In this document: positions 3,948-52,039 of the stretch, in pieces
How the letters are laid out: every line of letters starts with the position of its first letter
Numbering within the stretch: the first letter of the stretch is position 1
The notes under the pieces: model-generated
Databases searched by the model: none
Seen by the model: only the letters and a program-made list of their open reading frames with translations
What the model was told of the DNA's origin: nothing
Source: Patescibacteria group bacterium
Lineage (GTDB): Bacteria; Patescibacteriota; Microgenomatia; UBA1400; PJMF01
DNA length: 64,000 nucleotides
Reading direction: 5' to 3'
NCBI GenBank assembly: GCA_016861205.1
Contig: BOKX01000001.1
Location: forward strand, 328,539-392,538
Program-made: the position numbers and the translations under genes

Positions 3948-3968
3948 ATGTTCTCTCCATTAGTAATA

Positions 3969-4773: not shown

Positions 4774-4779
4774 AGCGCG

Positions 4780-4812
4780 ATTATACGTCAGATAGCTTGT
4801 TTGAGCAATTTC
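4780..4812 (-). promoter_or_regulatory. Sigma70-like promoter for the T-box leader/ileS operon. It overlaps the 3' end of the 316-aa gene.
   Basis: Minus strand: TTGCTC (-35, 4807..4812), a 17-nt spacer, then TATAAT (perfect -10, 4780..4785). Confidence 0.5.
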
Positions 4813-36028: not shown

Positions 36029-36037
36029 AGATTGTTC

Positions 36038-37054
36038 CTAGTTACGGCCCTGCCACAACTCACGGTAAGCTTTCTGACGAGCCTTATGTTTACCCATTGT
36101 ACCAAATAACCACCATCTCCATAGGGCACCAAGTTTCAAAATGGCCTTGACCAACGGCAGTTGCCAGTGAGGCTTGTGTTTCGCCCAAACGTATAAATAC
36201 CCTTTGTATTCACCCTTTATAGCGTTGACCGAACTCGAGCTGGCACTACCAATGTGAGTAACTTGCGCCGCTGGTTGAATAACTACATCCCAGTGATGAT
36301 GCTTCGCCCTCATGCAAAACTCGATGTCTTCGCCATACATAAAGATTCGGTCATCAAGCAAACCAATCTCGTCAAACACACTCCGCCGAATAGCCATGGC
36401 GGTTCCCCCCACCCAATCTCTGACTGCCAACTCCTGACTCAGTTCGATGGCACGCTGACCCGTGTGCTGGGTCGAAGGCAACCACTTGCCCAACACCGGA
36501 ATGTCATCCAGCATCAGCCACTGGGCCGCCAGCGACAAGAGCGTAGGAAAAGAACCACCTTGGTGTTGAACTGTCCCATCAGTGTTGAGCAACAGCGCCG
36601 ACACAATTCCCAACCGGTCAATATCACCCTGCGTTCTAGCCAGCTGGGCGCGGCTTTCCTGAATTGGATGCGTATCGAATGTTTGCACAATCGCTTGTAA
36701 TGCCCCCGGTTTAATCTCGGTATCCGAGTTGAGCAACAAAATAATTTCGCCCTTGGCGGACTGAATACCTTGGTTGTTCGCTCCCGAAAAACCCAAGTTA
36801 TGATCATTGATAATCACCTTAAACTTCTTGGGCTGTTTTAGGGCCAACTGACGCAAGTACTTTGGTGAATCATCACTCGAATTATTATCAACAAAGATTA
36901 GCTCAGTGCGCTTAGCTAGATCCGGATAGTTCTTCAGATCACTCATCACTGACTCAACCGTTTGCTCCGTCAACATTCGCGTGTTGTACGACACGATAAT
37001 GATAGAAAGTTTGAGCGACTCTTCAGTCATAATTGTTGTACTTACTGAAACCAC
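36038..37054 (-). CDS. GT2 (GT-A) glycosyltransferase
   Basis: LSIIIVSYNTRML...FVDNNSSDDS...LNSDTE. Confidence 0.8.
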   Translation of the reverse strand: MVSVSTTIMTEESLKLSIIIVSYNTRMLTEQTVESVMSDLKNYPDLAKRTELIFVDNNSSDDSPKYLRQLALKQPKKFKVIINDHNLGFSGANNQGIQSAKGEIILLLNSDTEIKPGALQAIVQTFDTHPIQESRAQLARTQGDIDRLGIVSALLLNTDGTVQHQGGSFPTLLSLAAQWLMLDDIPVLGKWLPSTQHTGQRAIELSQELAVRDWVGGTAMAIRRSVFDEIGLLDDRIFMYGEDIEFCMRAKHHHWDVVIQPAAQVTHIGSASSSSVNAIKGEYKGYLYVWAKHKPHWQLPLVKAILKLGALWRWWLFGTMGKHKARQKAYRELWQGRN

Positions 37055-37659
37055 CTGGCTCGACCTAAACGATACTTCAGCTCGCCAGCTCGCTCGCCAA
37101 TTACTTTGGCTGGCACTCCAGCGGCGATACTATTGGCTGGCACCGACTTTGTCACCACTGCGCCTGCTCCGATCGCTGCACCACGACCAATACTCACACC
37201 CGGCAAAATAATCACTCTAGGTCCAATGAACACATAGTCTTCAATCACAACCGGCTCTTCAATAGCTCGGAAACGCTCATCAGTTAGGTCATGTTGACTG
37301 GTCCAAATCATAACTTCTGAGGCAATATCAACATGGTTACCAATAGTCACCCCGCTCTTTGAACTAGCGAGTTGCCGACGGCCGTCTATGGTAACTCGCT
37401 CACCAACAATGGTGTCATCACCAATCGTCACAAACCTCGGGTCAAAAAATCGCCCCATCATGTGAATCGTCGAGCCATGGCCAATCTTCATACCAGCTAA
37501 GCGATAGAAAAACCGCCTCAAGTGATGTGAGGGGACGTACCCGACTCCCCACCATAAAAAACCAGTCACAAACTCCAGCCAAATACTGCTTAGCCGGTTG
37601 AGTACCTTTGCGGTCAAGGACCGTCGACCTGTTTGGGAAACATCTGTTGAACCTGTCAT
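37042..37659 (-). CDS. Left-handed beta-helix (hexapeptide-repeat) sugar O-/N-acetyltransferase
   Basis: Repeating [LIV]GxxxxI hexapeptides (IGPRVIILPGVSIGRGAAIGAGAVVTKSV). Confidence 0.7.
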   Translation of the reverse strand: MTGSTDVSQTGRRSLTAKVLNRLSSIWLEFVTGFLWWGVGYVPSHHLRRFFYRLAGMKIGHGSTIHMMGRFFDPRFVTIGDDTIVGERVTIDGRRQLASSKSGVTIGNHVDIASEVMIWTSQHDLTDERFRAIEEPVVIEDYVFIGPRVIILPGVSIGRGAAIGAGAVVTKSVPANSIAAGVPAKVIGERAGELKYRLGRARWFQ

Positions 37660-37663
37660 ACCA

Positions 37664-38692
37664 TCATTGTACTAAATCTGGCTTAGTCTCGCCTACTGAT
37701 AATCCTAAATGTTGGTAAGCAGCTGGGGTAATGACGCGACCTTTCGGTGTTTTTTGGATAAAGCCGATCTGCAGCAGATATGGCTCCAAAACCTCTTCAA
37801 TTGTACCTGGATCTTCACTAAGGGTGGCCGCAATCGTACTCAACCCCACTGGTCCACCGCGGTGTTTATCAATAATAAGCTCCAAGAATCGACGGTCGTG
37901 ATCGCTCAAACCAGCTTGATCAATCGCGAGCAACCGCAAAGCTTGCTCAACAATGTTTTGATTAATGATCTCAATGGCTTGCACTTGAGCAACATCACGG
38001 ACTCGACGCAACAACTGTAGAGCAATCCGCGGTGTACCTCTGGCACGCTGGGCAATCAGGTCTGCGCTGGTAGTATCAAGCTTGATGCTGAGTTTATCGG
38101 CTGCTCGGGCCACAATTTGAGTTAGATCGGCTGGCTGGTAGTGAGTCAATCGGTGCGTCATCCCAAACCGGTCACGAAACGGACCGGCCAACGTGCCAAA
38201 CCGTGTCGTCGCGCCCACCAGGGTAAAGGGCGGGATGTCGAGCCGCACTGTTCGGGCCGACGGACCTTTTCCGATCACAATATCGAGGGCGAAGTCTTCC
38301 ATGACTGGATAGAGGGTTTCTTCGACTGCCTTGGGCAGACGATGAATCTCATCGATAAACAAAACGTCCCCTGGCTCCAGATTTGTAAGAATGGCGGCTA
38401 AGTCACCAGCCTTGGCTAGGGCAGTCCCTGAGGTCAATCGCACGTTCACACCCAGCTCTTTAGCAATCAAGTGCGATAAGGTGGTCTTACCTAAACCTGG
38501 CGGTCCATAGAGTAATGTGTGGTCGAGCGGTTCATGTCGTTGCTTGGCGGCTTCAATGGCAATCTGGAGGGACTGTTTGATGGCTGGCTGGCCGATAAAC
38601 TCATCCCAAGCCGCTGCCCGAAGTGAAACCAAGACAGGATCTTCATCAGTCGGAGAAGTGATAGTTACGGTGGGGTCAAATGCGTCGGTCAT
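37664..38692 (-). CDS. ruvB: Holliday junction branch-migration ATPase RuvB
   Basis: [22 protein letters not shown] Walker A, FIDEIHRL Walker B, AAA+ plus winged-helix C-terminus. Confidence 0.95.
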
Positions 38693-38708
38693 ATCTTGTC
38701 CGAATGGT

Positions 38709-39281
38709 CTAGCGAGGTTTACCTAGTAACTTCATAGCCTGTTTTAACAGCACTTTCAACTCAGAACTCTCTTTGGGTAACTCAGGAAGAACCTGGTAGA
38801 TCTCAGCCTCATCAAATCCCAGTGACTGCAAGGCAGCTACTAGATCTTGTTCGAGTTGCGAACGAGGACCAAGCGATAACTCTTGTAAACTACCCAGTTT
38901 CCCCTTTAGTTCAATAATAATTTTCTGGGCGAGCTTTGTACCAACTCGCGGAATTGAGGTAAAGTACTTAACATCGGCAGTTTGCACGGCTTGCACCAAT
39001 GACTCTGCCCCCCGATCAATAATCGTTAAAGCAATGCGTGGGCCGACGCCTGAGACATCTAGAAGTAACTCAAAAACTTCTTTTTCCCGATACGTCCCAA
39101 AACCAAATAAACTCAGCTGATCTTCTCGGACATGCGTGTGAATAAATAGCTCGGCTTCTTCCAGACTACCCAGTCGCTGGGCCGTGGAAGTACCGACTTC
39201 CACACCATAACCTACACCATGAACCACCAGGATAAAGTGTTGACCGATTAACTGTGGGCGACCTTTTAACCAAGCAATCAT
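38709..39281 (-). CDS. ruvA: Holliday junction DNA-binding protein RuvA (start set at MIAWLKG)
   Basis: [10 protein letters not shown]...[13 protein letters not shown]-fold N-terminus, then HhH motifs ([11 protein letters not shown]) and a C-terminal domain. Confidence 0.85.
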
Positions 39282-39335
39282 AGAATTGTAATTTCGTGTT
39301 TTTTGATCAGAAGTTCGGTGTTCTTTCGCCACCAA

Positions 39336-39854
39336 CTATACACGCTTTGGCCAGCGAACTGAAGCGGCGTGTGTAATCAGAAGTGCCAGTGCATCAAGAG
39401 TGTCGTCGAGCAGCTTGGCGGGGGGCAGCTGTTTACCCAGTTGGAGGCGAACCATTTTTTCGACTTGTGTTTTGGTCGCTTTACCATGACCGGCAGCCGC
39501 TAACTTGACGCTACCAGGATTGTACTCGTAGATCAGACAACCCTGCTGTGTAGCACAGGTTTTAAGAGCCCCGCGCACCTCAGCTACTGCCAACGCTGTA
39601 GTCTGGTTCTTGCTAAAAATGAGGGTCTCCAAGACAACCATTTCTGGTGCCAATTTCGTCATTAACTGCTCGACAGCCATAACCAGCTCACCCAACCGCT
39701 CATTAAAGCTGAGCTGCTTCTGCGTGGTAATACACCCCCAACCAAGAAGCTTGAGCTGGCCACCTTCAACTTCAGCTCCAGCCCAACCTAACCGATCGTA
39801 ACCTGGATCAAATGCCACTATGCGATGTTTTGCCATATTAGTTACCAACTCCAC
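39336..39854 (-). CDS. ruvC: Crossover junction endodeoxyribonuclease RuvC
   Basis: IVAFDPGYDRLGWAGAEV catalytic-Asp N-terminus, ...YEYNPGSVKLAAAGHGKATKTQVEKMV. Confidence 0.8.
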   Translation of the reverse strand: MELVTNMAKHRIVAFDPGYDRLGWAGAEVEGGQLKLLGWGCITTQKQLSFNERLGELVMAVEQLMTKLAPEMVVLETLIFSKNQTTALAVAEVRGALKTCATQQGCLIYEYNPGSVKLAAAGHGKATKTQVEKMVRLQLGKQLPPAKLLDDTLDALALLITHAASVRWPKRV

Positions 39855-40714
39855 CAGGGACGCTCTTGAGGAGACTCAATTCGAAAACCCAAGGGATAGT
39901 ATTCTGGCTGAAAAATCACTTTTTCAAACTGAGTCTTGATCACCCAACGGTAGTGTCCTGTCGACTCATCATAGCTGTACTCCATCGGGGCACAACTTGT
40001 AATTTGTCGGAACAACTTGGGGTTAAAAGCCTTCAGTTGGGACAAGTTACGAGGACACAAACTAGGGTCATCTGACTCGACACACAAAGCCTTGAGGTGT
40101 GCATTAAAATGATGATACTGTCGAACTTGATCTTCGCATCGCATAAGTAGCAAAAATCCACCCACCGCGGTTAAAACTGAGATCGTGAAACTCAGACCCA
40201 ATAAGGCGAGTGACCAGTTTAGCCAAATCCGAACTTTCGCCCAAGTGTGTCGCGAAGCCAACCTAATCATCAACACCCCACCCAGGACAATCAAGGGAAA
40301 AGAAATCAAGAGCGCCAGCGGCACAAAGTACAGTACGATGCTGACTGGCCAAAAAGCAGTTGCTATGTCTGAAGGCGCCACGACCTCTGACCACCGTCCC
40401 GCTAGATAACCCAGGGCCAACCAAACTGGTCGAGTAGCCACATAGAGACCATGTATCAGCCAATACCAAGGATGGTCAGCTTCGGCACTCGATACTTCTA
40501 GTAACCAAATACTGGTCAGAGCCAAGATGGTAGGCCAGATTCCAAAGACTACTGCCACTAAGCCTAACCCTCGATTTTTGAGTTTGGCAGCTGGTTTTTG
40601 CCCCGCATTGATGCGCATCGCCACAACCGTCGTGAACACCGAGCTACATACAATTACCACAGCAACGACACCCCAAATCCCGCTCTGATACAGCCAGCCG
40701 AGTGGAGTCATCAT
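39842..40714 (-). CDS. Hypothetical polytopic membrane protein with a Cys-containing C-terminal soluble domain
   Basis: ~6 TM in the first 200 aa, then a hydrophilic tail (CEDQV...CVESDDPSLCP...). No family recognised. Confidence 0.45.
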   Translation of the reverse strand: MMTPLGWLYQSGIWGVVAVVIVCSSVFTTVVAMRINAGQKPAAKLKNRGLGLVAVVFGIWPTILALTSIWLLEVSSAEADHPWYWLIHGLYVATRPVWLALGYLAGRWSEVVAPSDIATAFWPVSIVLYFVPLALLISFPLIVLGGVLMIRLASRHTWAKVRIWLNWSLALLGLSFTISVLTAVGGFLLLMRCEDQVRQYHHFNAHLKALCVESDDPSLCPRNLSQLKAFNPKLFRQITSCAPMEYSYDESTGHYRWVIKTQFEKVIFQPEYYPLGFRIESPQERPWWSW

Positions 40715-41874
40715 GATTTTTTGGCTGAGGTAGCCACCTCCTCAAGTGTTTGCAGTACTACAGCTGCACTGCTTGACCAATCAAACTTTCTCAGCTGCTG
40801 CCGGGCTAGTCGTTGCAACCGCAGTCTCTCGCTTGCTCGCAAAGTAACAGCCTGATATAAGCCTCGAGCAATATCGTTAATGTCTAGGGGATCAACCAGT
40901 ATCCCTGCCTGCCCCACCACTTCAGGTAAACTGGTGGTATTGGACACCACTGGGACTGTACCAAACTGCATTGCCTCAAGGGGTGGCATCCCAAACCCCT
41001 CATACAAACCAACTAACACACTGGCGGTGGCTGTTTGGTACAGGGCTGCCTTAGCTTGATCATCGATAAAACCTGGTAGCACAATCCGCGACCGGTATGG
41101 TGACTCATTAATCCTGGCTAAGATACCATCTGCCAACCAACCAACCTTGCCTGCTATTACTAGTTGTAGCTGCGGCTGGCTGGAACGTCCTACTTCATGG
41201 TCTAGTCGAGTCGCCAACTTTTCAAAAGCCGCCACGAGCCGCTCCAAGTTCTTACGCGGCTGCAAAGTTCCGACATAGAGAAGGTATGGACCAGTAATCC
41301 CCATAGCCTTCAAAATTGCTTTTGATCTCGTGAGTGGGACCTTAGCTACCTGACTTGTGGTGGCTGGGTAGGCCACAACCACTTCTTTGGCCCGGCGACG
41401 ATACTGTTTCACCACGTCCTTTTTGGTCGCCTGACTAATCGCAACGACTCTTTGGGCATGGCGAACACTGTATGCCGTCCAGTGTTTCAGTTGAATATAG
41501 TCGCGCCGTTTAAATTGGGTCGGGAACTCCAAGAAAGCCAGATCCATCACCGAAGAAACATAGGGCACCACTGACAGTCTTGGTGCATAGTGACCCGGCG
41601 TGAAAAGCACATCGTACCGAGGAGCGTGTGTGAAAAGATGCCAGGGCAAAGCCAACTGTGTCCAAAGTGGATGTGGACCTACAACCTCGTACTGCCAGTT
41701 TGGTCCGGGTTGAGGCAGATCAGATTGGGGAGTATCTGCCAGCAACACGGTCACTTCAATATCTGGCCGGTGACGAGTTAGTTGGGCCAAAGCTGAAATG
41801 AGCTGGTACGCATACACATTGCTACCAACACGGTTTGAGACATTGGCTTCGTTGCCATCAATTGCAATCCGCAT
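40711..41874 (-). CDS. GT4 (GT-B) glycosyltransferase (start set at MRIAIDG)
   Basis: MRIAIDGNEANVSNRVGSNVYAYQ; C-terminal EGFGMPPLEAMQFGTVPVVSN. Confidence 0.75.
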   Translation of the reverse strand: MRIAIDGNEANVSNRVGSNVYAYQLISALAQLTRHRPDIEVTVLLADTPQSDLPQPGPNWQYEVVGPHPLWTQLALPWHLFTHAPRYDVLFTPGHYAPRLSVVPYVSSVMDLAFLEFPTQFKRRDYIQLKHWTAYSVRHAQRVVAISQATKKDVVKQYRRRAKEVVVAYPATTSQVAKVPLTRSKAILKAMGITGPYLLYVGTLQPRKNLERLVAAFEKLATRLDHEVGRSSQPQLQLVIAGKVGWLADGILARINESPYRSRIVLPGFIDDQAKAALYQTATASVLVGLYEGFGMPPLEAMQFGTVPVVSNTTSLPEVVGQAGILVDPLDINDIARGLYQAVTLRASERLRLQRLARQQLRKFDWSSSAAVVLQTLEEVATSAKKS

Positions 41875-41878
41875 AGTT

Positions 41879-43018
41879 TTATCTTCCGCCAGCTGCTTGA
41901 TGATAAACTCGGGTGGTTTCCAAGGCCACTCGGTTCCAGTCAAATAAATGTAACCTAACAATCATTTGTTGTGCCCGGCGTTGCTGGGCTGTGGGTGACT
42001 CACTCAAAATTGCCTTGAGTCCATCACGGATACTCTCGACGGATTCGGGGTTAACTAGTACAGCCGCATTGCCAGCTACTTCAGGCAAACTGGATACGTT
42101 GGAAGTGACTACGGGCGTACCATGATGGAAAGCTTCCAAAATAGGCAAGCCAAAGCCCTCGTACAATGACGGATAAGCAAAAGCCTCAGCCTGACTATAG
42201 AGCACTGCCAGTTCCTGATCTGTGACCTTACCCAGCAACCGCAACTGACCTTTACTTTCAGCTAGCCACTTGTCACTGTCATCCCAGCCAGCTGCACCAG
42301 CAATCAACAGTTGGTACTCTTTAGCCAAAGGTAGCCAAGCTTTAATCAGTCGATCCATGTTTTTGCGCGGCTCCCGAGTCCCAACAGCCAAAATGTACGG
42401 TCGATCGAGTTTGAGCCGATGGACCACTGCTGCTTCGACCTCCTCAGTGATGCTTTGGCTAGCCGCTACAACTTCTTGAGGTAAAGCCTCGTGAATCACG
42501 GTAATCTGCTCACTCGGGATATCGAGATACTCCATGATGTCAAGCTTGGTAGCTCGACTAACAGCAATAATGTGCGCACGACGCGCTTTGAGTGTTTTCC
42601 AAGCTCGTTGGTGATGAGCTAAGATCTCGGGATGGGCTGTCTCGGGAAACTTTAACATCGCCAAATCATGGATTGTCGAAACCAGCGGCAGATCCTCATC
42701 GGGTGGCTGCACCCAGTCCCAGCTGTGAAAAACCTGCAGCCTGGGCCAGAAACTCCGTACCGAGTTCAAGGTGGTGTGTGACCACAACCAGCTCAAAGCC
42801 CGTGGTGGCAACGACTGAATATGGCTGGCGGCTGGTTTAAGCTCTGATACCAAGTTGGTTAGTTTCGATTTTTGCCGCAGCGATGAGCCATAGAGATGGA
42901 CCGCCACATCAGGTTGCTGCCCCAGACATCTCACTAGATTAGTAGTGTATCTAGACACTCCCCGACCGTACACCACTGACGAGATGTCGACACCAACTGC
43001 TAAACGTGTATTGCTCAC
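41879..43018 (-). CDS. GT4 (GT-B) glycosyltransferase
   Basis: RLAVGVDISSVVYGRGVSRYT N-terminus; EGFGLPILEAFHHGTPVVTSN. Confidence 0.75.
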   Translation of the reverse strand: MSNTRLAVGVDISSVVYGRGVSRYTTNLVRCLGQQPDVAVHLYGSSLRQKSKLTNLVSELKPAASHIQSLPPRALSWLWSHTTLNSVRSFWPRLQVFHSWDWVQPPDEDLPLVSTIHDLAMLKFPETAHPEILAHHQRAWKTLKARRAHIIAVSRATKLDIMEYLDIPSEQITVIHEALPQEVVAASQSITEEVEAAVVHRLKLDRPYILAVGTREPRKNMDRLIKAWLPLAKEYQLLIAGAAGWDDSDKWLAESKGQLRLLGKVTDQELAVLYSQAEAFAYPSLYEGFGLPILEAFHHGTPVVTSNVSSLPEVAGNAAVLVNPESVESIRDGLKAILSESPTAQQRRAQQMIVRLHLFDWNRVALETTRVYHQAAGGR

Positions 43019-43039: not shown

Positions 43040-44521
43040 TCAGTTACTACTTATTCTGCCACTTGGTTTTGACCAGATTCTGACAAATCCCACACCAGGC
43101 CAGCTACGCAGTTCCACCTCGGTATAACCCAAGCTGCGCAAAACTTGGTTGACTTTCCGCGCTGGATCACTCAAGTCATTCAGGTAGTCAAAGGTCACCA
43201 CATACTCATACTCAGTGACTGGCTTGAGCACCTCAGCTAGATCGGGGACTTGATCAACGTGGAGCTGACCAGTAGCTATGACCGAGTACCCGTCATCATC
43301 ATACCATCGCCAGGGTGCAAAGGCCTCTGGGAAGGCAAACACCGCCACCGTTTTGGTAGCAGGATATCGGCTACGCACCCAAGTCTGAACCGCTCGCCAG
43401 TCTTCGCGTTGATACTGTGGCTGCCGATAGTAGGCCAAGGTTCCCCATACATTTATAACTAGCAACAATCCTAAGCCAAAACTACCCCATTTAACCTTCG
43501 ATTGCGTTCCTAACCAGCCAACCAATAGGTACCAGGCTGGCAGAGAAAATAACACCCGCTTCGGCTGCAAAACTGGAATCACAAACGACACCAGCCAGGC
43601 ACCGAGAATCGGCAACACCAACCACACACTCGCGATAACCACGGGATGATTCCAAGACCAGCGGCCGACTTTCCGCAGCTGCCAGCTGACCACCCCAAAC
43701 CAAGCACCTATCCCGACCAAGCCTGCTATAAACGGCCAGCTCACCTCAACATCCAAGACCCCAAACACAAACTTGGCCACCACCAGTGGCAAGGATTTCA
43801 GCTGCGGCACACTGACAACCGCTGACCAACCAGGCAACTGAGCTTGAACGTCTCCGCCTGCTGCCAGCTGCAAGCTAAAAATTGGCAGCCAGGGCACCAT
43901 CGCTAGAGCCATTCCGACCGCTGTTATGATGCTCGCTCGTCGCCAAGTCGGCCGGCTAAGCCATAGATACCCCAGCTGGGTCGCTAGCAAAAAAGGATAT
44001 AAGTATGAACTGTACATACCAGCCACGCCCATCACTCCCCACAGACCCCACCATCGAGCCACTGGCACTCGCGAGGTACTCTGTTTTACTAACCACCACC
44101 AACTCAACATAGCCCAAAAGGTAGGTAGTGAGTACTGACGCAACTCCTGTGAATAAAAAATATGGAACGAGCTGGTAGCCAGCAACCCAGCACTCCACCA
44201 TGCAGCTTTAGGACCCGTTATTTTTTCAGCGATCTTAAAACATAGATAAACGCTCAAGACACCCGGCACCAAGGCTCCCCAGAACCGCAGCCACCACTCA
44301 GCGTGACTCACGTACTGAACTACATGAAGTATCAAGTGCAGTAAGGGTGGTTGGAAATCAGGAATGATTTCAAACTGTTGCCACCAGGGCCGAGAACTCT
44401 CGAGTGCTTGGGCTGCCTCGTCGAGCCAAAATGAGCCAGTCAACAGCGGTAACCGCAGCAACAAACTCAGGCCAACTACCATCAGCCATCCCCACTTCAC
44501 CCAAAAAGACTGTTTGCTCAT
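43040..44521 (-). CDS. GT-C fold glycosyltransferase of the ArnT/PMT_2 (GT83/GT39-like) type. It uses a polyprenyl-phosphate-sugar donor. An alternative TTG start is at 44557.
   Basis: ~12 TM. The first periplasmic loop carries LDEAAQALESSR and FQPPLLHLILHVV, matching the GT83/GT39 signature (DE.ryae.a..m / KPPL.yWl). Confidence 0.65.
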   Translation of the reverse strand: MSKQSFWVKWGWLMVVGLSLLLRLPLLTGSFWLDEAAQALESSRPWWQQFEIIPDFQPPLLHLILHVVQYVSHAEWWLRFWGALVPGVLSVYLCFKIAEKITGPKAAWWSAGLLATSSFHIFYSQELRQYSLPTFWAMLSWWWLVKQSTSRVPVARWWGLWGVMGVAGMYSSYLYPFLLATQLGYLWLSRPTWRRASIITAVGMALAMVPWLPIFSLQLAAGGDVQAQLPGWSAVVSVPQLKSLPLVVAKFVFGVLDVEVSWPFIAGLVGIGAWFGVVSWQLRKVGRWSWNHPVVIASVWLVLPILGAWLVSFVIPVLQPKRVLFSLPAWYLLVGWLGTQSKVKWGSFGLGLLLVINVWGTLAYYRQPQYQREDWRAVQTWVRSRYPATKTVAVFAFPEAFAPWRWYDDDGYSVIATGQLHVDQVPDLAEVLKPVTEYEYVVTFDYLNDLSDPARKVNQVLRSLGYTEVELRSWPGVGFVRIWSKPSGRISSN

Positions 44522-44556
44522 AGTCAGTAACCAATTACAATCATGGTATAGTAACA

Positions 44557-44574
44557 ACTATCTCGTGCGATAGT
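44557..44574. promoter_or_regulatory. Palindrome ACTATC-N6-GATAGT in the divergent promoter region between the GT-C gene and the UDP-GlcA decarboxylase gene; candidate operator
   Basis: Perfect 6-bp inverted repeat with a 6-nt spacer, flanked by AT-rich TAGT-rich sequence. Confidence 0.25.
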
Positions 44575-44613
44575 TTAGTATATACAGGTTGCGCCTGTCC
44601 CTGAAAGTAGAGT

Positions 44614-45594
44614 ATGTCATCAGGAACTGTCATTATTACCGGAGCCGCTGGCTTTGTTGGGTCACACTTAACTGATCGTTTTCTATCTGACGGCTGGCGT
44701 GTCGTGGGGGTCGATAACTTGATCACTGGTCGCGATGAAAACCTCGCCCACCTTCAGGGAAATCCCAGCTTTACACTCATTAAGGCAGATGCGAGCCAAG
44801 ATCCAGCCGGCTACCTCCCCGCTGACGTGCAACCCGACTTGGTTCTCCATTTCGCTTCTCCGGCCAGTCCACCTGTTTACCAAGCCCATCCCGTTGAGAC
44901 GTATCTTGTTAACAGTCTTGGCACTCATTTCTGGCTGGAGTGGCTTCGCGAAGCTCATCCTCAAGCCCGGTTTGTGTTTGCCAGTACCTCTGAAGTGTAT
45001 GGGGATCCTGAAGTCCATCCCCAAGTTGAGTCATACTGGGGCCGGGTCAATCCGAATGGTCTTCGATCATGTTATGACGAGAGTAAACGGCTTGGGGAAA
45101 CCATTTGTGGCGTCCACCAACGTGACTTCGGCATGGATGTGCGAATCGTTCGCATTTTCAATACCTATGGCCCCCGAATGAATCCAGCCGATGGCCGGGT
45201 GATCCCTGATTTCATCGCTCACATTCTTAAAAATGAACCAGTGGTCATTCATGGAACTGGTGACCAAACTCGATCGTATTGTTATGTGTCTGACTTGGTA
45301 GATGGCATCGTGGCATTAGCGACCCAAGAGGGACATAGTGGTCTGACAGTGAACCTCGGCAACCCCGAGGAGTTCACCATCAATGAAACCGCTCAAATCA
45401 CATTTGAAGTGGCCAAGGAGTTAGGACTGACTATCTCGGATACACTCCAAACCACCTTCAAACCACTCCCAAGTGACGACCCGACCCGGCGGCAACCTGA
45501 TATAACATGTGCCCGCCAAAAACTAGACTGGTTTCCGACCGTTTCGTTCCGAACTGGTTTGCGAAAAACTATCGGGGCATGGCACTCTCAGTAG
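44614..45594 (+). CDS. UDP-glucuronate decarboxylase / UDP-xylose synthase-like SDR (ArnA-C-terminal-domain type)
   Basis: VIITGAAGFVGSHL Rossmann motif, ASTSEVYGDP, and SCYDESKRLGET (the UXS YDEGKR motif rather than the YxxxK of 4,6-dehydratases). Confidence 0.75.
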   Translation: MSSGTVIITGAAGFVGSHLTDRFLSDGWRVVGVDNLITGRDENLAHLQGNPSFTLIKADASQDPAGYLPADVQPDLVLHFASPASPPVYQAHPVETYLVNSLGTHFWLEWLREAHPQARFVFASTSEVYGDPEVHPQVESYWGRVNPNGLRSCYDESKRLGETICGVHQRDFGMDVRIVRIFNTYGPRMNPADGRVIPDFIAHILKNEPVVIHGTGDQTRSYCYVSDLVDGIVALATQEGHSGLTVNLGNPEEFTINETAQITFEVAKELGLTISDTLQTTFKPLPSDDPTRRQPDITCARQKLDWFPTVSFRTGLRKTIGAWHSQ

Positions 45595-47179
45595 CCAACT
45601 TGAGCAAATACACGTCACACACATGATCACATCCTTCGGATACTGGTACAAAAATAAAAGTTGATTTGTACCGTTCGTAATCACGGATTACTTGCTGCGC
45701 ATGGGTAATATAGGCATTACTAATATACAGCTCTTTGCCTTCGGCAACCCACGCTGCATAACCCTGAATTAAATCTGAATACATTATGTCATCACCCCAG
45801 ATGTATTCTCCCTTCTGCAAAAACTCTTGAGCTGTAGATAGTGGTACCACCCGATAGGCACCCACTTGATACGCATCAACTAAGAAAGGTGGTAAAGCTG
45901 TAATCAGTATGGCAGTAGGTTTATTCGTGAAAACCTGATTGAAGTGCTGAATGGATTCAAACTGCCAGGCTCGTGAGCGGTGCAACACGTTGGCGGCTAA
46001 GATTTCTTTAGCCAATCCAACTTGGCTGTTCAGCTGCCCCAATCCAACCACCATTAACCCAATTATTAGGACAACCATTATCTTTCTATGAGATTTTTGT
46101 AGCAGTTGATCGAAAAACCAAGTCACAACTAGACACAATATCGGAATACTGTAGATGATATATCTGGCATCCACCACATAAAAAACTAAGGCTATCGGCC
46201 AGAGTGCCAACCAAACTGCTGCCATCCCCCGCCACGCACCGCGAAGTTTATCGCTCACCAGGAGGCCGTACCCAAAACCTCCCATGGCTAAAACGAAGAA
46301 CAATCCCGAGCTGAACGGATATCGCTGCCACAAGAATTGATTAGCTCCGCCCAAAACTATTGCAAGATATGCGAGACTGTTACCAGGAATATGAGCTAAG
46401 TTGTAAAACTGCCCGCCATGGAGTAACTGGTCAAAAGCCACCTTAAAAAATGCCCCCACCGGCACTTTGGCCACCAGGAAGTAAGTCCAAAAAAGGACCA
46501 CCATGGCGATCATGACACTCACAAAAGCTACCCGAATCCGCTGGGTTTGGGTAAACCAAATGCGCACCATCAGCCACGTTGCTAGGACTCCCACCAAGCT
46601 GATAGCTGCAAACCTGGTCAATAATAATCCGCCGATACCTATGGCTGTCAAAACCAGCTGCTTCAAGCTTGGCTTAGGCACCACCAAACCATAAAGTGAC
46701 AACAAGAAGAGGGGAACAGCTATATTTTCTGACATCGGGAGGGTCGGCAGCCACCAGATGAAAGCATGACTAGCTAAACACACAACCACCAAACTCGGTG
46801 CCCACCAGTGTTTGGTGGTCACCCGTGCAATCAGCCACATCAGCCCAAAGCTGGTCAAGCCTAACATGGTGTTGACTATCACAAACGAACTAGGTGACTT
46901 ATTGATCAGATAGCCCAAGCTCAAAACTACCGCATATAAAGGCGGCACCCAGAGTCGGACAGTCTCACCTAAATACTCGAGCTGTAATCCCCTGCCCATG
47001 ACTGCATTGCGGGCAGACAACGTATACAGCAACCCATCTGGATATGGTTCTAGATTGAATAAAAAATGATGTGTCGAAACTATGCTAAGAAGTGAAACTA
47101 CCAAAAAACTGATTAGAACTAGCCCGAGGACCCCATACGTTTTTAACCAGTCCAAGTTATGTCGCATGAACACTCTCAT
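45569..47179 (-). CDS. Second polytopic membrane protein, probably also a GT-C fold glycosyltransferase
   Basis: 536 aa, >10 TM. N-terminal loop EPYPDGLLYTLSARNAVMG and VPPLYAVVLSLGYL resemble the GT-C DE/PPL loop motifs. Its 3' end overlaps the convergent UXS gene by 26 nt. Confidence 0.45.
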   Translation of the reverse strand: MRVFMRHNLDWLKTYGVLGLVLISFLVVSLLSIVSTHHFLFNLEPYPDGLLYTLSARNAVMGRGLQLEYLGETVRLWVPPLYAVVLSLGYLINKSPSSFVIVNTMLGLTSFGLMWLIARVTTKHWWAPSLVVVCLASHAFIWWLPTLPMSENIAVPLFLLSLYGLVVPKPSLKQLVLTAIGIGGLLLTRFAAISLVGVLATWLMVRIWFTQTQRIRVAFVSVMIAMVVLFWTYFLVAKVPVGAFFKVAFDQLLHGGQFYNLAHIPGNSLAYLAIVLGGANQFLWQRYPFSSGLFFVLAMGGFGYGLLVSDKLRGAWRGMAAVWLALWPIALVFYVVDARYIIYSIPILCLVVTWFFDQLLQKSHRKIMVVLIIGLMVVGLGQLNSQVGLAKEILAANVLHRSRAWQFESIQHFNQVFTNKPTAILITALPPFLVDAYQVGAYRVVPLSTAQEFLQKGEYIWGDDIMYSDLIQGYAAWVAEGKELYISNAYITHAQQVIRDYERYKSTFIFVPVSEGCDHVCDVYLLKLATESAMPR

Positions 47180-48449
47180 CGGTTAGATGTCGATAGTACC
47201 ACCAAGCAACGACAACCGTACCCAAAAATAAGATACCGCGAGTAACGAGCCTCGTCCAGACGGTGGCTTCAAGCCCATAGATCGGCAAAAACCAGAAATT
47301 TCCCCCAATAGTGAGTGCCAACTGCAGTAAGCCCGAAACTGAAAAATACCATGGGGCTTCAAAACTAAAGAAAACCGCAATAAATGGAATCACAGCAATT
47401 GTTAAAAATGCAGCCCCCAAAAGCCCAACTAAGAGTGGTAAGCCCGGCAAATACTCGGCACCGATGGTCAAAATAATTAGCCACTTGGCACTCACCGCCG
47501 TGACCACAAATCCCAGACAACTAGCTACCACCACAGCCCAAGCTTTCTTGAAGTAGCTTCGTAAATGAGCTTTGCTGTGATACTTTGCCACTCGGGCATT
47601 CAGTACATTTCCCAGTGAGTAGGCAATCAAAGTAAACAGCATTGCAATTCTGGAGGCACCGCTTAACAAGCCTGCTTCATATGTTGAAAGGTAACCTTGA
47701 ACAAATAATACATCCAAATTTTCAACCAAGCCGGCTGCAATAAACGCCACCGCAGAGTGACTGGCCATGCTTCTGATCAGCTGACGTTCAGCCTTAAACT
47801 CACCCTGTACTGAAAACGTTACCCAAACAGGCAAAAACCGTCGCCAAATGAGTACTGGCAGTAAGGGCGCTACCAAATACCAAACAAGGAAACCACTCGT
47901 CGTAGTCAACGACGTGATTGTCAATACCACGATGCCAATCAGTTTGGCAGTTGCTTGCATTACATTAATCACCACTAGCTTAGAAAAAAGGTGGAGAGAC
48001 TGTAACATAGCCTGCAGATGCTCATAGAGTACCGCGCAGCTACTGAGTATAAATGCCAACAACACGATCGTCGGCGAATCGAAGTTTAACCAACTGCTGA
48101 TAAATCGGTGTGCGAATAACCCTACCACAGCTACCACTAGAATCGCGCCAAACTTTAATCGAGTTGTATACGAAAATAACCGGTTAATACCCACCCGATC
48201 ATTACTCCGAGCACCATATTTTTGAACGGCATTACTCAAACCAAGATCAGTCACCCGATTTAAAATCAAAGCCAGAGAAAATCCAATACTGAACTCACCA
48301 AATTTTTCGGGACCCAAAATTCGAGAGACCAAAATCATCGCTAGAGCTGAGATACTCATGGAAACGGTATTCCCAATTAGCACACCCGCGCTTTGTCGCA
48401 ACCCTTTTGATTGGCTCAAGGTTGCCAGACGACGTAACGGTGAATTCAT
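47157..48449 (-). CDS. wzx: MOP-superfamily polysaccharide flippase (Wzx-like)
   Basis: 430 aa, ~12 TM; the N-terminal region (GNTVSMSISALAMILVSRILGPEKFGEFSIGFSLALIL) is typical of the Polysacc_synt family. Confidence 0.7.
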   Translation of the reverse strand: MNSPLRRLATLSQSKGLRQSAGVLIGNTVSMSISALAMILVSRILGPEKFGEFSIGFSLALILNRVTDLGLSNAVQKYGARSNDRVGINRLFSYTTRLKFGAILVVAVVGLFAHRFISSWLNFDSPTIVLLAFILSSCAVLYEHLQAMLQSLHLFSKLVVINVMQATAKLIGIVVLTITSLTTTSGFLVWYLVAPLLPVLIWRRFLPVWVTFSVQGEFKAERQLIRSMASHSAVAFIAAGLVENLDVLFVQGYLSTYEAGLLSGASRIAMLFTLIAYSLGNVLNARVAKYHSKAHLRSYFKKAWAVVVASCLGFVVTAVSAKWLIILTIGAEYLPGLPLLVGLLGAAFLTIAVIPFIAVFFSFEAPWYFSVSGLLQLALTIGGNFWFLPIYGLEATVWTRLVTRGILFLGTVVVAWWYYRHLTDESVHAT

Positions 48450-48571
48450 ACCCTTAGTATAGCAACAACTTTGCTACCAAACAGGTCAAGATATCAACGA
48501 GCTACCCATCAATCCGTTCACGCTCCTTATTGCCCACCACATTCTGTGTTAGTATTGGTGCAGAAAGATCT

Positions 48572-49396
48572 ATGTCGTTCGAAGTTGTTATCAAAGCCAG
48601 ACCTCAGTGGCGATTATTTGATTGGCGCGAGCTGTGGCGTTTTCGCGAGCTACTCTATATCTTTGGTTGGCGGGATATAAAAGTTCGGTACAAACAGACA
48701 GCAATTGGTATTTTGTGGGTTGTGCTTCAACCTGTGGTTAACACGGTTATTTTCACCATTTTTTTTGGTAACTTTGCTCATATCCCCTCAGGCCCGCTGC
48801 CATATCCCATTTTTGTACTCTTGGGTTTGTTGTTTTGGGGGTTTTTTTCTGCTGCTTTGAGCCGGGAAGCCAATAGTTTTATTGAAAATGAACAACTTGT
48901 TAAAAAAGTCTACTTCCCCCGTGAGATCCTACCAATCTCGGCCATCGGAGCTGTTTTGGTGGACTTTTTAGTAACGCTCGGCCTCTTCATACTCATGTTG
49001 CTTATCTATAAAGTGCCTGTTCCATGGCTCTTTATTCCTTACTTTATTGTCGGGATTTTGATCACTATCACCACTTGTATCGGCCTGGGCTTGCTTTTGG
49101 CAGCCATAAACATAAAGTATCGCGATGTTCGCTATGTTATCCCTTTTTTCTTGCAAACGTTGATTTTTGTGACACCGGTGATTTACCCAACGAGCTTAGT
49201 CCGCCCATCATTTCAGTTGTTACTTAGCTTGAACCCCATGACAGGCGTTATCGATTCCTTGCGGTCAATACTCGGGACTAATTCCAATCCACACCCCGAA
49301 TACCTGCTTATCTCAGCATTCTCGAGTATTATCTTACTTTTAATAGGGTTCATGTACTTCAGAAGAACTGAACGTTACTTCGCTGACATCCTATGA
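48572..49396 (+). CDS. wzm: ABC-2 type glycan export permease Wzm (start set at MSFEV)
   Basis: WRELWRFRELLYIFGWRDIKVRYKQTAIGILWVVLQP is the diagnostic ABC-2 N-terminal motif; 6 TM. Confidence 0.85.
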   Translation: MSFEVVIKARPQWRLFDWRELWRFRELLYIFGWRDIKVRYKQTAIGILWVVLQPVVNTVIFTIFFGNFAHIPSGPLPYPIFVLLGLLFWGFFSAALSREANSFIENEQLVKKVYFPREILPISAIGAVLVDFLVTLGLFILMLLIYKVPVPWLFIPYFIVGILITITTCIGLGLLLAAINIKYRDVRYVIPFFLQTLIFVTPVIYPTSLVRPSFQLLLSLNPMTGVIDSLRSILGTNSNPHPEYLLISAFSSIILLLIGFMYFRRTERYFADIL

Positions 49397-51464: not shown

Positions 51465-52039
51465 ACAGCATGCCATCCACACCCCAAACCAGTTTTTATT
51501 CCGAAACTGAGTTAGCGACTCTTGGATTAAAAGCGTACGGCCAAGAGGTACTAATCAGCCGGAAAGCTTCCCTTCTATCACCGAGCCAAATCAGCGTCGG
51601 TGATCATGTGCGGATTGACGACTTCGCGCTTTTATCTGGCGAAATCAGACTTGGCTCTTATGTACACCTCTCTGCTTTTGTAGCACTCTACGGCACCAAC
51701 GGCATACACTTGGAAGACTACTGTGGTATTTCTGCCCACTCAACAGTGTACAGCGTCACCGACGATTTTAGCGGCAAGTCATTGATCGGGCCGATGGTAC
51801 CATCAGCACTTAGAAATGTTTCTGGTGGGCTTGTCCATTTTCAGTCGCACACGCAGCTGGGCGCCCACAACGTAGTTATGCCGGGGGTAACGCTTCATGA
51901 AGGGGCAGTCACAGGCGCACTTTGTTTTGTAAACTCTGATTTACCTGCCTGGACAATCTCAGTCGGAATTCCCAACCGCGTCTTAAAGAAACGACAGCAA
52001 ACAGTCTTATCACTGGTTAAAAGAGACCCTCAATCATGA
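51461..52039 (+). CDS. Hexapeptide-repeat (LbH) acetyltransferase, likely aminosugar N-acetyltransferase
   Basis: ISVGDHVRIDDFALLSGEIRLGSYVHLSAFVAL hexapeptide repeats; ~190 aa, overlapping the downstream aminotransferase. Confidence 0.65.
   Translation: MNSMPSTPQTSFYSETELATLGLKAYGQEVLISRKASLLSPSQISVGDHVRIDDFALLSGEIRLGSYVHLSAFVALYGTNGIHLEDYCGISAHSTVYSVTDDFSGKSLIGPMVPSALRNVSGGLVHFQSHTQLGAHNVVMPGVTLHEGAVTGALCFVNSDLPAWTISVGIPNRVLKKRQQTVLSLVKRDPQS

Follow-up and report, generated by a model that had tools for sequence, protein, structure and literature searches.

A UXS-type UDP-glucuronate decarboxylase between two GT-C-fold glycosyltransferases: a conserved module in a possible cell-envelope glycan locus of Patescibacteria

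In mycobacterial and corynebacterial lipoglycan and arabinan assembly, the GT4 enzymes PimA and PimB work inside the membrane and the GT-C enzymes PimE, Mpt, Emb and Aft outside it. In the Arn pathway a GT-C enzyme, ArnT (GT83), acts on lipid A, an acceptor that is not available in Patescibacteria, since they are monoderm and lack LPS. Another arrangement is that of the three-component systems, which combine a membrane-anchored synthase with a small 4-TM flippase; the pentofuranose system of Citrobacter youngae, with GT136, belongs to these three-component extracytoplasmic glycosylations (PMC11127046). The locus described here recalls each of these and differs from each.

We analysed a window of 64,000 nt of contig BOKX01000001.1, from a Patescibacteria group bacterium; all positions are counted within this window. 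The three open reading frames which a preliminary description had reported at 43040–47179 are all present, and its view that two GT-C enzymes (A and C) flank a UDP-glucuronate decarboxylase (B) is borne out, for A by Pfam PMT_2 and a structural model, for C by structure. As a whole that interpretation is partly supported: A, UXS and C do not stand together by coincidence but form a conserved module; the Arn-like pathway and the aminopentose then proposed are not supported.

Table 1. Features of the locus and their positions in the window
Feature	Position	Strand	Basis or remark
A, PMT_2-type GT-C glycosyltransferase	43040..44521	-	Pfam PMT_2, AF2/Foldseek, invariant residues
B, UXS-type UDP-glucuronate decarboxylase (UDP-xylose synthase), predicted	44614..45594	+	soluble SDR, 326 aa
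C, unannotated GT-C-fold glycosyltransferase	45569..47167	-	AF2 + Foldseek; ORF extends to 47179
Wzx-like (Polysacc_synt/MOP) flippase	47157..48449	-	Pfam Polysacc_synt 42.5 bits
Palindrome AACTATC-N6-GATAGTT	44556..44575		A/UXS divergent intergenic region, 92 bp
GT4a, cytoplasmic GT-B (family 4) glycosyltransferase	41879..43018	-	Pfam Glycos_transf_1 + Glyco_transf_4
GT4b, second cytoplasmic GT4	40711..41874	-	Pfam, PDB; ORF extends to 41961 from TTG
290-aa membrane protein, between GT4b and ruvC	39842..40714	-	hydrophobic segments
ruvC-ruvA-ruvB, housekeeping genes	37664..39854	-	Pfam; conserved synteny within glycan locus
Hexapeptide acyltransferase, GT2, Wzy_C-type membrane protein	34109..37659	-	Pfam; conserved continuation after ruvB

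B is clearly close to human UXS1 (PDB 2b69/4gll): phmmer against the PDB gives 293 bits (E 2e-86), the next-best solved SDR being GalE with 127 bits, and the alignment runs end to end with 49.5% identity (148/299 aligned positions). The NAD-binding GxxGxxG, the catalytic T-S-E, the YxxxK(R) and the C-terminal Arg are aligned, as are the motifs GAAGFVG, ASTSEVYGDPEVHPQ, CYDESKR, RIFNTYGPRM and DDPTRRQPDI. Unlike the human enzyme, B is bacterial and soluble, lacks the N-terminal membrane anchor, and its activity is predicted only. B stays below the cut-off of every NCBIfam equivalog model (79 bits versus 777 for ArnA, 97.5 versus 294 for UDP-4-keto-pentose/UDP-xylose synthase), and a formyltransferase domain is absent. 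Of the earlier assignment “UXS/ArnA-decarboxylase”, made from the YDESKR motif, the UXS half stands and the ArnA half does not. By its sequence B is predicted to be a cytoplasmic UDP-xylose synthase of the UXS type; the expected product, UDP-xylose, is no substrate for a transaminase, so that an aminopentose is not supported. A UDP-glucose dehydrogenase, which would supply the substrate of UXS and for which a search had been proposed, was found neither in the window nor in 32 related loci (the host genome has 1.15 Mb).

The ORF of A (43040–44557, minus strand) has 505 aa when read from a TTG; the ATG at 44521, which corresponds to the start called in L027, a close relative, is likely the true one (493 aa), and the NCBI version of the protein has 480 aa. 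A matches Pfam PMT_2 with 30.7 bits (cut-off 26.1), as do 59 of the 63 members of its family. Its AlphaFold2 model (pLDDT 93.1, pTM 0.92) retrieves with Foldseek the archaeal oligosaccharyltransferase AglB at the top, together with Pmt4, STT3, ArnT and ALG12, with TM-scores up to 0.60. The “DE..A” and “PPL” motifs first noticed in A are confirmed, and across 63 homologues their residues D46, E47, P70, P71 and L72 do not vary; D67, E138, R140, K333 and R334 are invariant too, and a near-invariant P-W-R-W-Y-D, to be placed outside the membrane by topology, lies a few dozen residues past the last TM helix. C, at the opposite, finds no match in Pfam, NCBIfam or the PDB sequences (ORF 45569–47179, minus strand, 536 aa, or 532 aa from the second ATG). 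Its AlphaFold2 model (pLDDT 95.3, pTM 0.93) nevertheless matches solved GT-C enzymes, ArnT 5f15 first (E 5e-8, TM 0.61), then STT3, ALG12, DPY19 and AftA, so that the “second probable GT-C” of the preliminary description was correctly recognized. N42, E44–D48, E151, D337, R339, Y340, C517 and C521 are invariant in C, whose homologues form 312 clusters (50% identity, E<=1e-30) among 1.84 billion representatives.

Hhalign relates C to the A family (E 6e-7 over 395 columns, with 92% probability). A and C are thus distant paralogues, and by their models both are membrane glycosyltransferases of the GT-C fold. Both carry invariant acidic residues just past TM1, D46/E47 in A and E44/D48 in C: this is the expected catalytic position, in agreement with the acidic catalytic residue anticipated for these proteins, and GT-C topology would put it in an outside loop. 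K333/R334 of A are aligned with R339 of C in a later loop, and each protein has a conserved C-terminal alpha/beta domain past the last TM helix; by analogy with other GT-Cs, this domain and the acidic motif are probably extracytoplasmic. A and C thus resemble ArnT in their multi-TM GT-C(A) architecture, in the acidic residues that follow TM1 and in having a soluble domain at the C-terminus (the TM-score of A to ArnT is 0.56), but neither has a sequence-level match to it.

The preliminary description also pointed to a palindrome, ACTATC-N6-GATAGT, as a possible regulator site. It is present at 44557–44574, with arms that are in fact 7 bp and not 6. Perfect 6-N6-6 inverted repeats occur 17 times in the window for about 15.6 expected, and in the 92 bp between A and UXS a 6-bp palindrome with a 0–12 nt spacer would arise by chance at least once with a probability of about 0.22. 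The motif has a single copy in the window; in L027, the closest relative, the intergenic DNA is 91% identical and one arm reads GATAAT; a consensus scan over the region detected no promoter-like site. We judge the palindrome a chance feature, and its role as a regulator site is unsupported.

The 3’ end of the gene for the 12–14-TM Wzx-like protein overlaps the start of C, and a Wzx homologue adjoins C in 20 of 26 related loci. On the other side GT4a, without TM helix, lies directly downstream of A, an adjacency conserved in related loci, and the position of GT4b ahead of ruvC is conserved as well; the nearest solved relatives of the two GT4s are MshA and PimA, at only 40–63 bits. The 290-aa membrane protein matches no Pfam family and in NCBIfam only HmcB below the cut-off (20.3 bits versus 420); its only counterpart among the related loci is in L027, and it is lineage-specific and stands outside the conserved core. 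A PglC-like phosphoglycosyltransferase (27621–28241), the Wzy_C protein and several GT4 and GT2 enzymes complete a Wzx/Wzy-type set in the window. The GT2s had been taken for ArnC-like candidates, but none of the four has a TM helix, they score 25–30 bits or nothing against the ArnC model (cut-off 529), none reaches an ArnC/GtrB-level score, and they resemble polymer GT2s of the TuaG/EpsE/chondroitin-synthase type. Similarly the DegT protein, supposed to be an Arn-type aminotransferase, scores best with DesI (315 bits), followed by PseC (222 bits), versus 163 bits for the ArnB model (cut-off 631), and its position relative to the core is not conserved.

About 20 Patescibacteria genomes, whose proteins are only 30–60% identical, share one gene order: Wzx-C, then UXS in the reverse orientation, then A-GT4a-GT4b-RuvCAB. 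In these genomes the conserved order extends past RuvCAB to the acyltransferase, GT2 and Wzy_C genes: the hexapeptide acyltransferase follows ruvB in L001, L027, L029, L030 and L031, the GT2 comes next in the last four, and Wzy_C then in L027 and L031. Seventeen distinct loci with a C gene (C identity 30–44%) have kept a homologue of A downstream of it, and in every one of them UXS lies between C and A on the opposite strand. Three further genomes were fetched through homologues of A instead of C; in two of them, L029 and L031, UXS is divergent beside A-GT4a-GT4b-RuvC, and L031 carries a C-like ORF, 25% identical. Altogether, of 22 distinct loci that are informative, 19 have UXS directly between or beside GT-Cs; no other sugar-nucleotide enzyme was found in the conserved core. 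Extra GT-C paralogues occur near UXS, an A-like copy in L008 and a C-like copy in L031, and L026 lacks all three of UXS, A and GT4a. In several genomes UXS is separated from its neighbours by toxin-antitoxin pairs, a Fic protein, a methyltransferase or a HAD protein.

How might these enzymes work together? We propose that UXS would turn UDP-glucuronate into UDP-xylose; the soluble Leloir enzymes GT4a, GT4b and GT2 would use nucleotide sugars, probably including UDP-xylose, for assembling an oligosaccharide, carried on polyprenyl diphosphate after priming by the PglC-like enzyme; the Wzx-like protein would flip this intermediate; outside the membrane A and C would extend or branch the glycan with further sugars, from polyprenyl-phosphate donors made elsewhere in the genome; and the Wzy_C-type protein would polymerise or ligate the product. 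In its favour are the UXS identity of B, the GT-C folds with their invariant residues, the conserved synteny, the lack of lipid-phosphate-sugar machinery in the window, the Polysacc_synt/Wzx type of the flippase and the Wzx/Wzy-type set around it. Against it, the UDP-glucose dehydrogenase needed to feed UXS is missing from the window and the 32 related loci, gene order in streamlined CPR genomes may be kept without a functional link, a GT4 xylosyltransferase is to our knowledge not a well-known activity, the sugar specificity of GT4a and GT4b is not readable from their sequences, and the GT-C paralogues around UXS in L008 and L031 fit GT-Cs as the xylose users at least equally well; taken entire, we give it slightly less than an even chance. 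A GT2 encoded elsewhere might instead make polyprenyl-phosphate-xylose, to be flipped and used outside by A and C, and in some genomes by their extra paralogues. The mycobacterial Emb and Aft enzymes, which use decaprenyl-phosphate-arabinose, offer an analogy, and we know of no characterised GT-C(A) enzyme outside the STT3 family that does not use polyprenyl-phosphate monosaccharides. The structural matches of A and C include AftA, AftB, AftD and Emb, and two cytoplasmic GT4s near PimA and MshA stand here also beside several paralogous GT-Cs; on the other hand there is no sequence-level relationship, the phylum is another one, no polyprenyl-phosphate sugar synthase or DprE-like epimerase is seen here, and UXS has no counterpart in the mycobacterial pathway. 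The place of UXS among multiplied GT-Cs and its joint absence with A and GT4a argue for such a xylose donor, but the joint absence amounts to one contiguous deletion, seen in only one genome. The GtrA/GtrB/GtrC, CsbB/GtcA/YfhO and Citrobacter youngae systems resemble the locus in having a GT-C beside a flippase-like gene in a surface-glycan locus and in the idea of a pentose added outside the membrane, for which GT-Cs provide a precedent (PMC11127046). Their lipid-phosphate-sugar synthase and small 4-TM flippase are absent from the window, ORFs in gaps included; the adjacent flippase is a large one, and TM-bearing GT2s (ArnC/GtrB/DPM1 type) have no candidate in the window or in the gene calls of seven related genomes. 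Moreover our literature searches found no description of polyprenyl-phosphate-xylose made from UDP-xylose: the known xylofuranose routes begin with PRPP or methylthioadenosine (PMC11127046), and the precursor here would be UDP-xylose, not PRPP as in the Citrobacter youngae type. This route is rather unlikely in our view, and so is its outcome, xylose decoration of a surface polymer or polymerisation of a xylan-like chain by A and C.

The rank of AglB for A, and of STT3 or PglB at many ranks for both proteins with strong Foldseek probabilities, suggests still another role: A and/or C would transfer the flipped polyprenyl-diphosphate oligosaccharide whole, as oligosaccharyltransferase or ligase. 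The translational coupling of C to the flippase, the P-W-R-W-Y-D motif of A and the likeness to pgl-type loci (PglC-like priming enzyme, aminotransferase, acetyltransferase, GT4s, flippase) go in this direction. However the WWDxG motif is in neither protein, none of the 132 members of the two families matches Pfam STT3, A and C have about 500 aa versus 700–870 for PglB/AglB/STT3, their TM-scores to oligosaccharyltransferases (0.45–0.56) do not exceed the values reached with ArnT or ALG12 (0.56–0.61), and the locus already has a ligase/polymerase candidate of the Wzy_C type. We hold a whole transfer to be improbable, and equally so its conceivable acceptors, a protein (pilin or S-layer), peptidoglycan or a lipid. 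It might also be that UXS and the GT-Cs serve separate glycans, their adjacency being a frozen order: synteny in streamlined CPR genomes can outlast functional coupling, ruvCAB, unrelated to glycans and kept in the block, being an example, and UXS is always on the opposite strand, with unrelated genes inserted beside it in several genomes. Yet the order persists at 30–45% protein identity despite the insertions, UXS still adjoins A in L029 and L031, two of the three genomes that were retrieved by way of A homologues, and all other conserved non-ruv genes of the block are glycan-related, which makes a frozen order quite improbable. As for the Arn-like pathway initially proposed, it would lead from UDP-GlcA to UDP-4-keto-pentose, by DegT to UDP-Ara4N, by GT2 to a lipid-linked aminopentose and finally to transfer by a GT-C. 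A decarboxylase-family SDR does adjoin the GT-Cs here, and the DegT aminotransferase and GT2s lie with them within 12 kb. But the SDR is of the UXS type, the DegT is DesI/PseC-like and outside the conserved core, the GT2s are soluble, no ArnD-like deacetylase, deformylase, ArnE/F-like protein or other small flippase was found in the window, and there is thus no equivalent of ArnA, ArnB, ArnC, ArnD or ArnE/F; we regard this pathway as extremely improbable.

Returning to the proposed route from UDP-xylose through a GT4-built glycan and Wzx flipping to extension by A and C, the module most likely builds a xylose-containing surface glycan and not an aminoarabinose one of the Arn kind. It may well form, although we stop just short of calling this probable, the central part of a conserved locus for the assembly of a cell-envelope glycan in a clade of ultrasmall Patescibacteria (CPR; Pacebacteria/Microgenomates-like).

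B, the short-chain dehydrogenase/reductase (SDR) gene lying between the two GT-C genes A and C, is predicted to encode a UDP-glucuronate decarboxylase of the UDP-xylose synthase (UXS) type, with UDP-xylose as its expected product. Its length is close to that of an extended SDR (~320 aa), its residues 10-16 (GAAGFVG) correspond to the N-terminal Rossmann GxxGxxG motif for NAD binding, and residues 6-249 match Pfam Epimerase at 179.8 bits. In a search of every PDB chain, human UXS1 takes the first four places (E about 2e-86, 293 bits, residues 6-321), while GalE, the next-best protein, reaches 127 bits and the dTDP-glucose dehydratases/RmlB-type enzymes 78-90 bits; ArnA is absent among the matches with E<1e-20. 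The alignment with human UXS1 (148 identities in 299 positions) includes the conserved blocks ASTSEVYGDPEVHPQ, CYDESKR (CYDEGKR in human UXS1), RIFNTYGPRM and DDPTRRQPDI; in the columns of ASTSEVYG, CYDESKR and DDPTRRQPDI, 4gll has ASTSEVYG, CYDEGKR and DDPQKRKPDI. The Thr/Ser-Glu pair, the Tyr-x-x-x-Lys and the C-terminal Arg of B thus align with the catalytic residues T118/E120/Y147/K151/R277 of human UXS1. The NCBIfam models give 79.1 bits for ArnA (cut-off 777), 128.5 for RmlB (cut-off 365) and 97.5 for the bifunctional UDP-4-keto-pentose/UDP-xylose synthase (cut-off 294), and B is a single SDR domain, not the formyltransferase plus decarboxylase pair of ArnA. By this comparison of scores, B stands nearer to UXS than to any of the ArnA, RmlB and GalE clades and appears to be an ordinary UXS. 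The decarboxylase proposed in the preliminary description is therefore retained; we did not see it side with 4,6-dehydratases or epimerases, UXS1 being best by score.

The two neighbours of B are identified as GT-C enzymes. A matches Pfam PMT_2 (PF13231, of the ArnT/PMT-like clan) by a narrow margin, 30.7 bits for a threshold of 26.1, and so do 59 of its 63 homologues (E<=0.01). Its AF2 model (pLDDT 93.1, pTM 0.92) yields 31 PDB matches at E<=1e-3 with Foldseek, the significant ones being AglB, Pmt4, STT3, ArnT (TM 0.56) and ALG12 (TM 0.60), and all 37 best-ranked entries are GT-C enzymes. For C (pLDDT 95.3, pTM 0.93) the best match is ArnT (E 5e-8, TM 0.61), then STT3/OST, ALG12, DPY19 and AftA; all 21 matches at E<=1e-3 are again GT-C enzymes. 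In A the pair D46 and E47, situated between the helices 18-38 and 45-54, is invariant in 63 sequences, and its N-terminal Lys residues together with GT-C topology suggest that this pair faces the outside of the cytoplasm. Likewise N42, E44, P45, Y46, P47 and D48 of C, after TM1, are invariant in 69 sequences. Since acidic residues are conserved after TM1 in both proteins (D46/E47 and E44/D48), the GT-C assignment stands, and the lack of a periplasmic catalytic Asp/Glu that could have undermined it was not observed. Other invariant residues are D67, P70-P71-L72, E138/R140 and K333/R334 in A, and E151, D337/R339/Y340 and two cysteines of the C-terminal domain in C.

Profile-profile alignment of the two families (hhalign) gives 92% probability and E 6e-7 over 395 columns, the C-terminal domain included, so that A and C are, as far as profiles tell, distant paralogues. 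In this alignment R334 of A faces R339 of C, and we infer that this residue is the counterpart of the phosphate-binding Arg of other GT-Cs. Near the beginning of the C-terminal domain, presumably extracytoplasmic, both families also have a near-invariant motif, at positions that align: F-P-E-P-F-A-P-W-R-W-Y-D in A (residues 409-420, about 43298-43333, W418 and Y419 being found in 63/63) and I-T-A-L-P-P-F-L-V-D-A-Y-Q in C (residues 426-438, P430 and P431 in 69/69). This motif may serve to bind the acceptor or the donor.

Assigning these proteins to a known family is another matter. In the databases A is a "glycosyltransferase family 39 protein", a name that derives from PMT_2 only: PF02366, MIR and PMT_4TMC are absent from A and its 63 homologues. 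The A family is an already labelled, large GT-C family of Patescibacteria, loosely mislabelled "GT39". As for GT83, neither A nor C has a sequence match to ArnT and only the fold is common. C matches no family in Pfam or NCBIfam and no PDB sequence; seven of its 69 homologues touch PMT_2, two of the 69 touch Glyco_transf_22, and the databases call its homologues "hypothetical". NCBIfam is also silent on A and on the flippase beside C. Compared with every PDB chain by phmmer and by family profiles, A and C gave no match at E<=1, 10 and 10 respectively; the equivalence of their catalytic residues with those of ArnT or PglB is one of fold position, not of alignment. C thus appears, from its modelled structure, to be an unannotated GT-C family recognisable only by structure.

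Coordinates of the features discussed (nt of the window)
Feature	Position	Strand	Remarks
A, PMT_2-type GT-C	43040-44557	-	505 aa counted from TTG
B, UXS	44614-45594	+	326 aa
C, second GT-C	45569-47179	-	536 aa
Polysacc_synt/Wzx-type flippase	47157-48449	-	Pfam; upstream of C, overlapping C start
GT4a, glycosyltransferase	41879-43018	-	downstream of A
GT4b, glycosyltransferase	40711-41961	-	ORF extent; downstream of A
Membrane protein		-	290 aa; further downstream of A, before ruvC; weak NCBIfam match, below cut-off
ruvC, ruvA, ruvB	37664-39854	-	Pfam; inside glycan locus
Wzy_C	34109-36028		Pfam
Bac_transf, PglC-like priming enzyme	27621-28241		207 bits
DegT	52036-53202		
GT2	53209-54930	+	573 aa
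Second export route (ABC-2 permease, ATPase; Wzm/Wzt- or TagGH-like) with nearby genes	48530-50604; 55882-57482	+	
MurC-MurB-type ORF	13939-16338	-	799 aa
Seven ORFs	3300-5738; 8561-9304; 22169-22975; 58534-59349; 62404-63345		200-316 aa; no Pfam family
Palindrome	44556-44575		7-bp arms
Hairpin ACAGG-TTGCG-CCTGT	44585-44599	+	15 nt upstream of UXS ATG

A and B point away from each other, with 56 bp between them when A is read from its TTG and 92 bp when it starts at the ATG at 44521. The ATG is probably the true start: it is the one called in the closest relative (locus L027), and it fits the structure model, in which confidence is very low over the first ten residues of the longer ORF. B and C converge tail to tail with an overlap of 26 bp (45569-45594), which leaves no room for a terminator between them; an overlap of 26 bp is found in L027 as well, and one of 14 bp in another relative (L004).

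Read as a regulatory site, the palindrome of the A/UXS intergenic region does not survive closer inspection. Seventeen palindromes of the 6-N6-6 form occur in the window for 15.6 expected, its motif is present there in a single copy, and in L027, whose intergenic DNA is 91% identical, one arm reads GATAAT without compensating change. Its frequency and its lack of conservation lead us to reject it as a regulator site, and we treat it as a chance feature. A consensus scan of the window for promoters and terminators stayed at or below shuffle expectation and found no promoter-like site in this intergenic region, and Rfam returned no RNA family in the window. Between the palindrome and UXS lies a small hairpin; L027 keeps both arms of its stem and changes three of its five loop bases in the otherwise 91%-identical region, an anecdotal observation on two sequences only.

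The homologue lists of A and C share many contigs. Starting from the C family, we collected 21 species-level loci from GTDB genomes, plus several from metagenomes, and mapped the proteins of the window on them by tblastn. An A homologue is kept downstream in 17 distinct C-containing loci, and all 17 show C (as a rule next to Wzx), then UXS on the other strand, A, GT4a, GT4b, RuvC, RuvA and RuvB, with identities of 30-44% for C and 53-64% for UXS. Two more loci (L020, L025) end within or just past UXS. Reached through their A homologues, three genomes keep A-GT4a-GT4b-RuvCAB-hexapeptide acyltransferase-GT2(-Wzy_C), and in two of these loci (L029, L031) a UXS orthologue, 56-59% identical, divergently adjoins A; L031 also holds a C-like ORF (1577-3292, 25% identical). 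Altogether the order A-GT4a-GT4b-RuvCAB-hexapeptide acyltransferase-GT2-Wzy_C is found in about 20 Patescibacteria genomes, the ruv genes having no obvious glycan link. Judged from this synteny, the grouping is a conserved module; we found no description of a conserved block of UXS and several GT-Cs in CPR genomes in the literature searched.

What lies between C, UXS and A varies, with insertions of a methyltransferase, toxin-antitoxin pairs, Fic or HAD proteins, so that the divergent promoter region of the window is not conserved. In two Pacebacteria loci, UXS is parted from A by inserted toxin-antitoxin-like pairs (HTH_3 with Gp49/HigB-like) and a Fic protein (L001, 14792-15426; L005, 13151-14823). 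In L023 A directly follows C, with no UXS between them. Elsewhere UXS, A and GT4a are absent together (L026, 6154-10726), or an extra A-like GT-C stands on the far side of UXS (L008, 12776-16759). The C family is small: at E<=1e-30, a search of 1.84 billion representatives yields 312 clusters at 50% identity. The source labels of the homologues, which point to the phylum, are Pacebacteria, Paceibacterota, Woesebacteria or "Patescibacteria group". Nine GTDB MAG records (L006, L007, L008, L011, L014, L016, L017, L025 and L026) are titled Pseudomonadales, Limisphaerales or Methylococcaceae and show full CPR-type synteny; these are probably mislabelled or contaminated bins.

Of the preliminary description, then, the GT-C, UXS, GT-C grouping is upheld, and the Arn-like aminopentose pathway that was to run through it is not. 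The window does hold GT2 enzymes and a DegT aminotransferase. The four GT2s, offered as ArnC-like, have no hydrophobic segment, find their best models among the TuaG, EpsE, MftF and chondroitin-synthase types, and in this window-wide comparison reach 25.5-30.1 bits (three of them) or nothing (the fourth) on the ArnC model, whose cut-off is 529. DegT scores 314.9 bits for DesI, 221.6 for PseC and 162.8 for ArnB (cut-off 631); it shares a block, placed differently from one genome to the next, with a methyltransferase, an acetyltransferase and a GT2. As B is of the UXS and not of the ArnA type, its expected product, UDP-xylose, could not be used by a transaminase. Pfam scans of the 55 non-spurious ORFs of at least 150 aa in the window revealed neither a deformylase nor a GtrA/EamA/SMR flippase, and the intergenic gaps contain no small 4-TM ORF. 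UDP-glucose dehydrogenase is likewise missing from the window by the Pfam scans of these 55 ORFs and by two motif scans, and from the window plus 32 loci (582 kb) by tblastn with an E. coli Ugd sequence. The original Arn pathway is thus hardly credible to us, and the polymyxin-resistance-like function that an aminoarabinose reading would suggest is without support.

How does xylose then travel through this module? UDP-xylose is a cytoplasmic nucleotide sugar, directly used by Leloir enzymes only. The conserved block contains such enzymes, GT4a, GT4b and one GT2, as well as a large flippase of the Wzx type and a Wzy_C-type protein; with the priming phosphoglycosyltransferase and the further GT2s, the window holds a Wzx/Wzy set, whose parts presumably act on a single glycan. 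The identities of these parts and their conserved linkage are observed, and from them we infer the flow of sugar. The most economical scheme, to which we would give a little less than an even chance, is a Wzx/Wzy-type assembly that would build a xylose-containing unit, which A and C would extend or branch outside the membrane with polyprenyl-phosphate-sugar donors made elsewhere. The best solved relatives of GT4a and GT4b, at only 40-63 bits, do not narrow their specificity.

A lipid-linked xylose route, in which the GT-Cs would receive their sugar from the UXS beside them, is possible, though on the unlikely side. It is favoured by the tight clustering of GT-C paralogues around UXS and by the use of monophosphate-linked monosaccharides by almost all GT-C(A) enzymes. 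We know of no description of a bacterial lipid-phosphate xylose donor made from UDP-xylose, and the literature gave nothing specific on lipid-linked xylose or on CPR GT-C enzymes. Known three-component systems, the pentofuranose one included, depend on a lipid-phosphate-sugar synthase associated with the membrane and on a small flippase with 4 TM helices (PMC11127046), and both are absent from the locus of the window. The "MATE flippase" of the pentofuranose system, considered as a precedent for the flipping of lipid-phosphate sugars by a Wzx-type protein, was discarded, this protein being 4-TM and EmrE/ArnE-like (PMC11127046). That the module both makes and uses polyprenyl-phosphate-xylose, which A, C and the extra copies would polymerise or graft outside the membrane, seems distinctly improbable. 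En-bloc transfer by A and C, in the way of an OST or a ligase, is in our opinion clearly unlikely. STT3/OST enzymes figure among the fold matches of both proteins; neither A nor C has the WWD of the GT66 motif WWDxG (A has P-W-R-W-Y-D instead), and the STT3 Pfam is absent in 132 sequences. Finally, UXS and the GT-Cs might be neighbours without any functional link, which we consider very unlikely; they stand together in the 17 loci.

Several features of the window lie outside this module. Beside it is a second export route with an ABC-2 permease and an ATPase; close to this route are a GDPD-like protein, a HAD phosphatase and a nucleotidyltransferase, and the whole suggests a polymer that is teichoic-acid-like or phospho-substituted. 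A dcw cluster is also present in the window, in which a complete Mur ligase (Mur_ligase, _M, _C) is fused to FAD_binding_4 and MurB_C. Several of the seven ORFs without a Pfam family fall inside the dcw and glycan clusters. The 573-aa GT2 ends in a soluble region of ~400 aa with no family match; among the relatives, L001 has a DegT-GT2 fusion of 671 aa and L004 an 856-aa protein with a DegT match only. UXS excepted, the run of 40 consecutive non-spurious ORFs that ends at 48449 lies wholly on the minus strand. All 2-kb bins of the window have a negative GC skew, which stays unchanged where plus-strand genes take over at 48530.

Patescibacteria account for much of bacterial diversity, and with few of them in culture next to nothing is known of their envelope chemistry. 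Few glycan gene blocks keep their order, as this module does, throughout a clade of such reduced genomes, which argues for a core component of the envelope rather than a strain-variable antigen. A "hypothetical" family of about 300 clusters at 50% identity, C, hereby receives a predicted fold, and both GT-Cs candidate catalytic residues to mutate. If the lipid-linked route were true, it would bring with it a carrier-lipid sugar not known so far and an equally new system for extracytoplasmic polymerisation; were polyprenyl-phosphate-xylose indeed the donor, Patescibacteria would have a xylan-like envelope polymer, built like mycobacterial arabinan from decaprenyl-phosphate-arabinose. Nothing here contradicts current understanding, and the analysis leads to a concrete, testable and, we believe, firm prediction on CPR envelope chemistry: xylose should be a constituent of the envelope.
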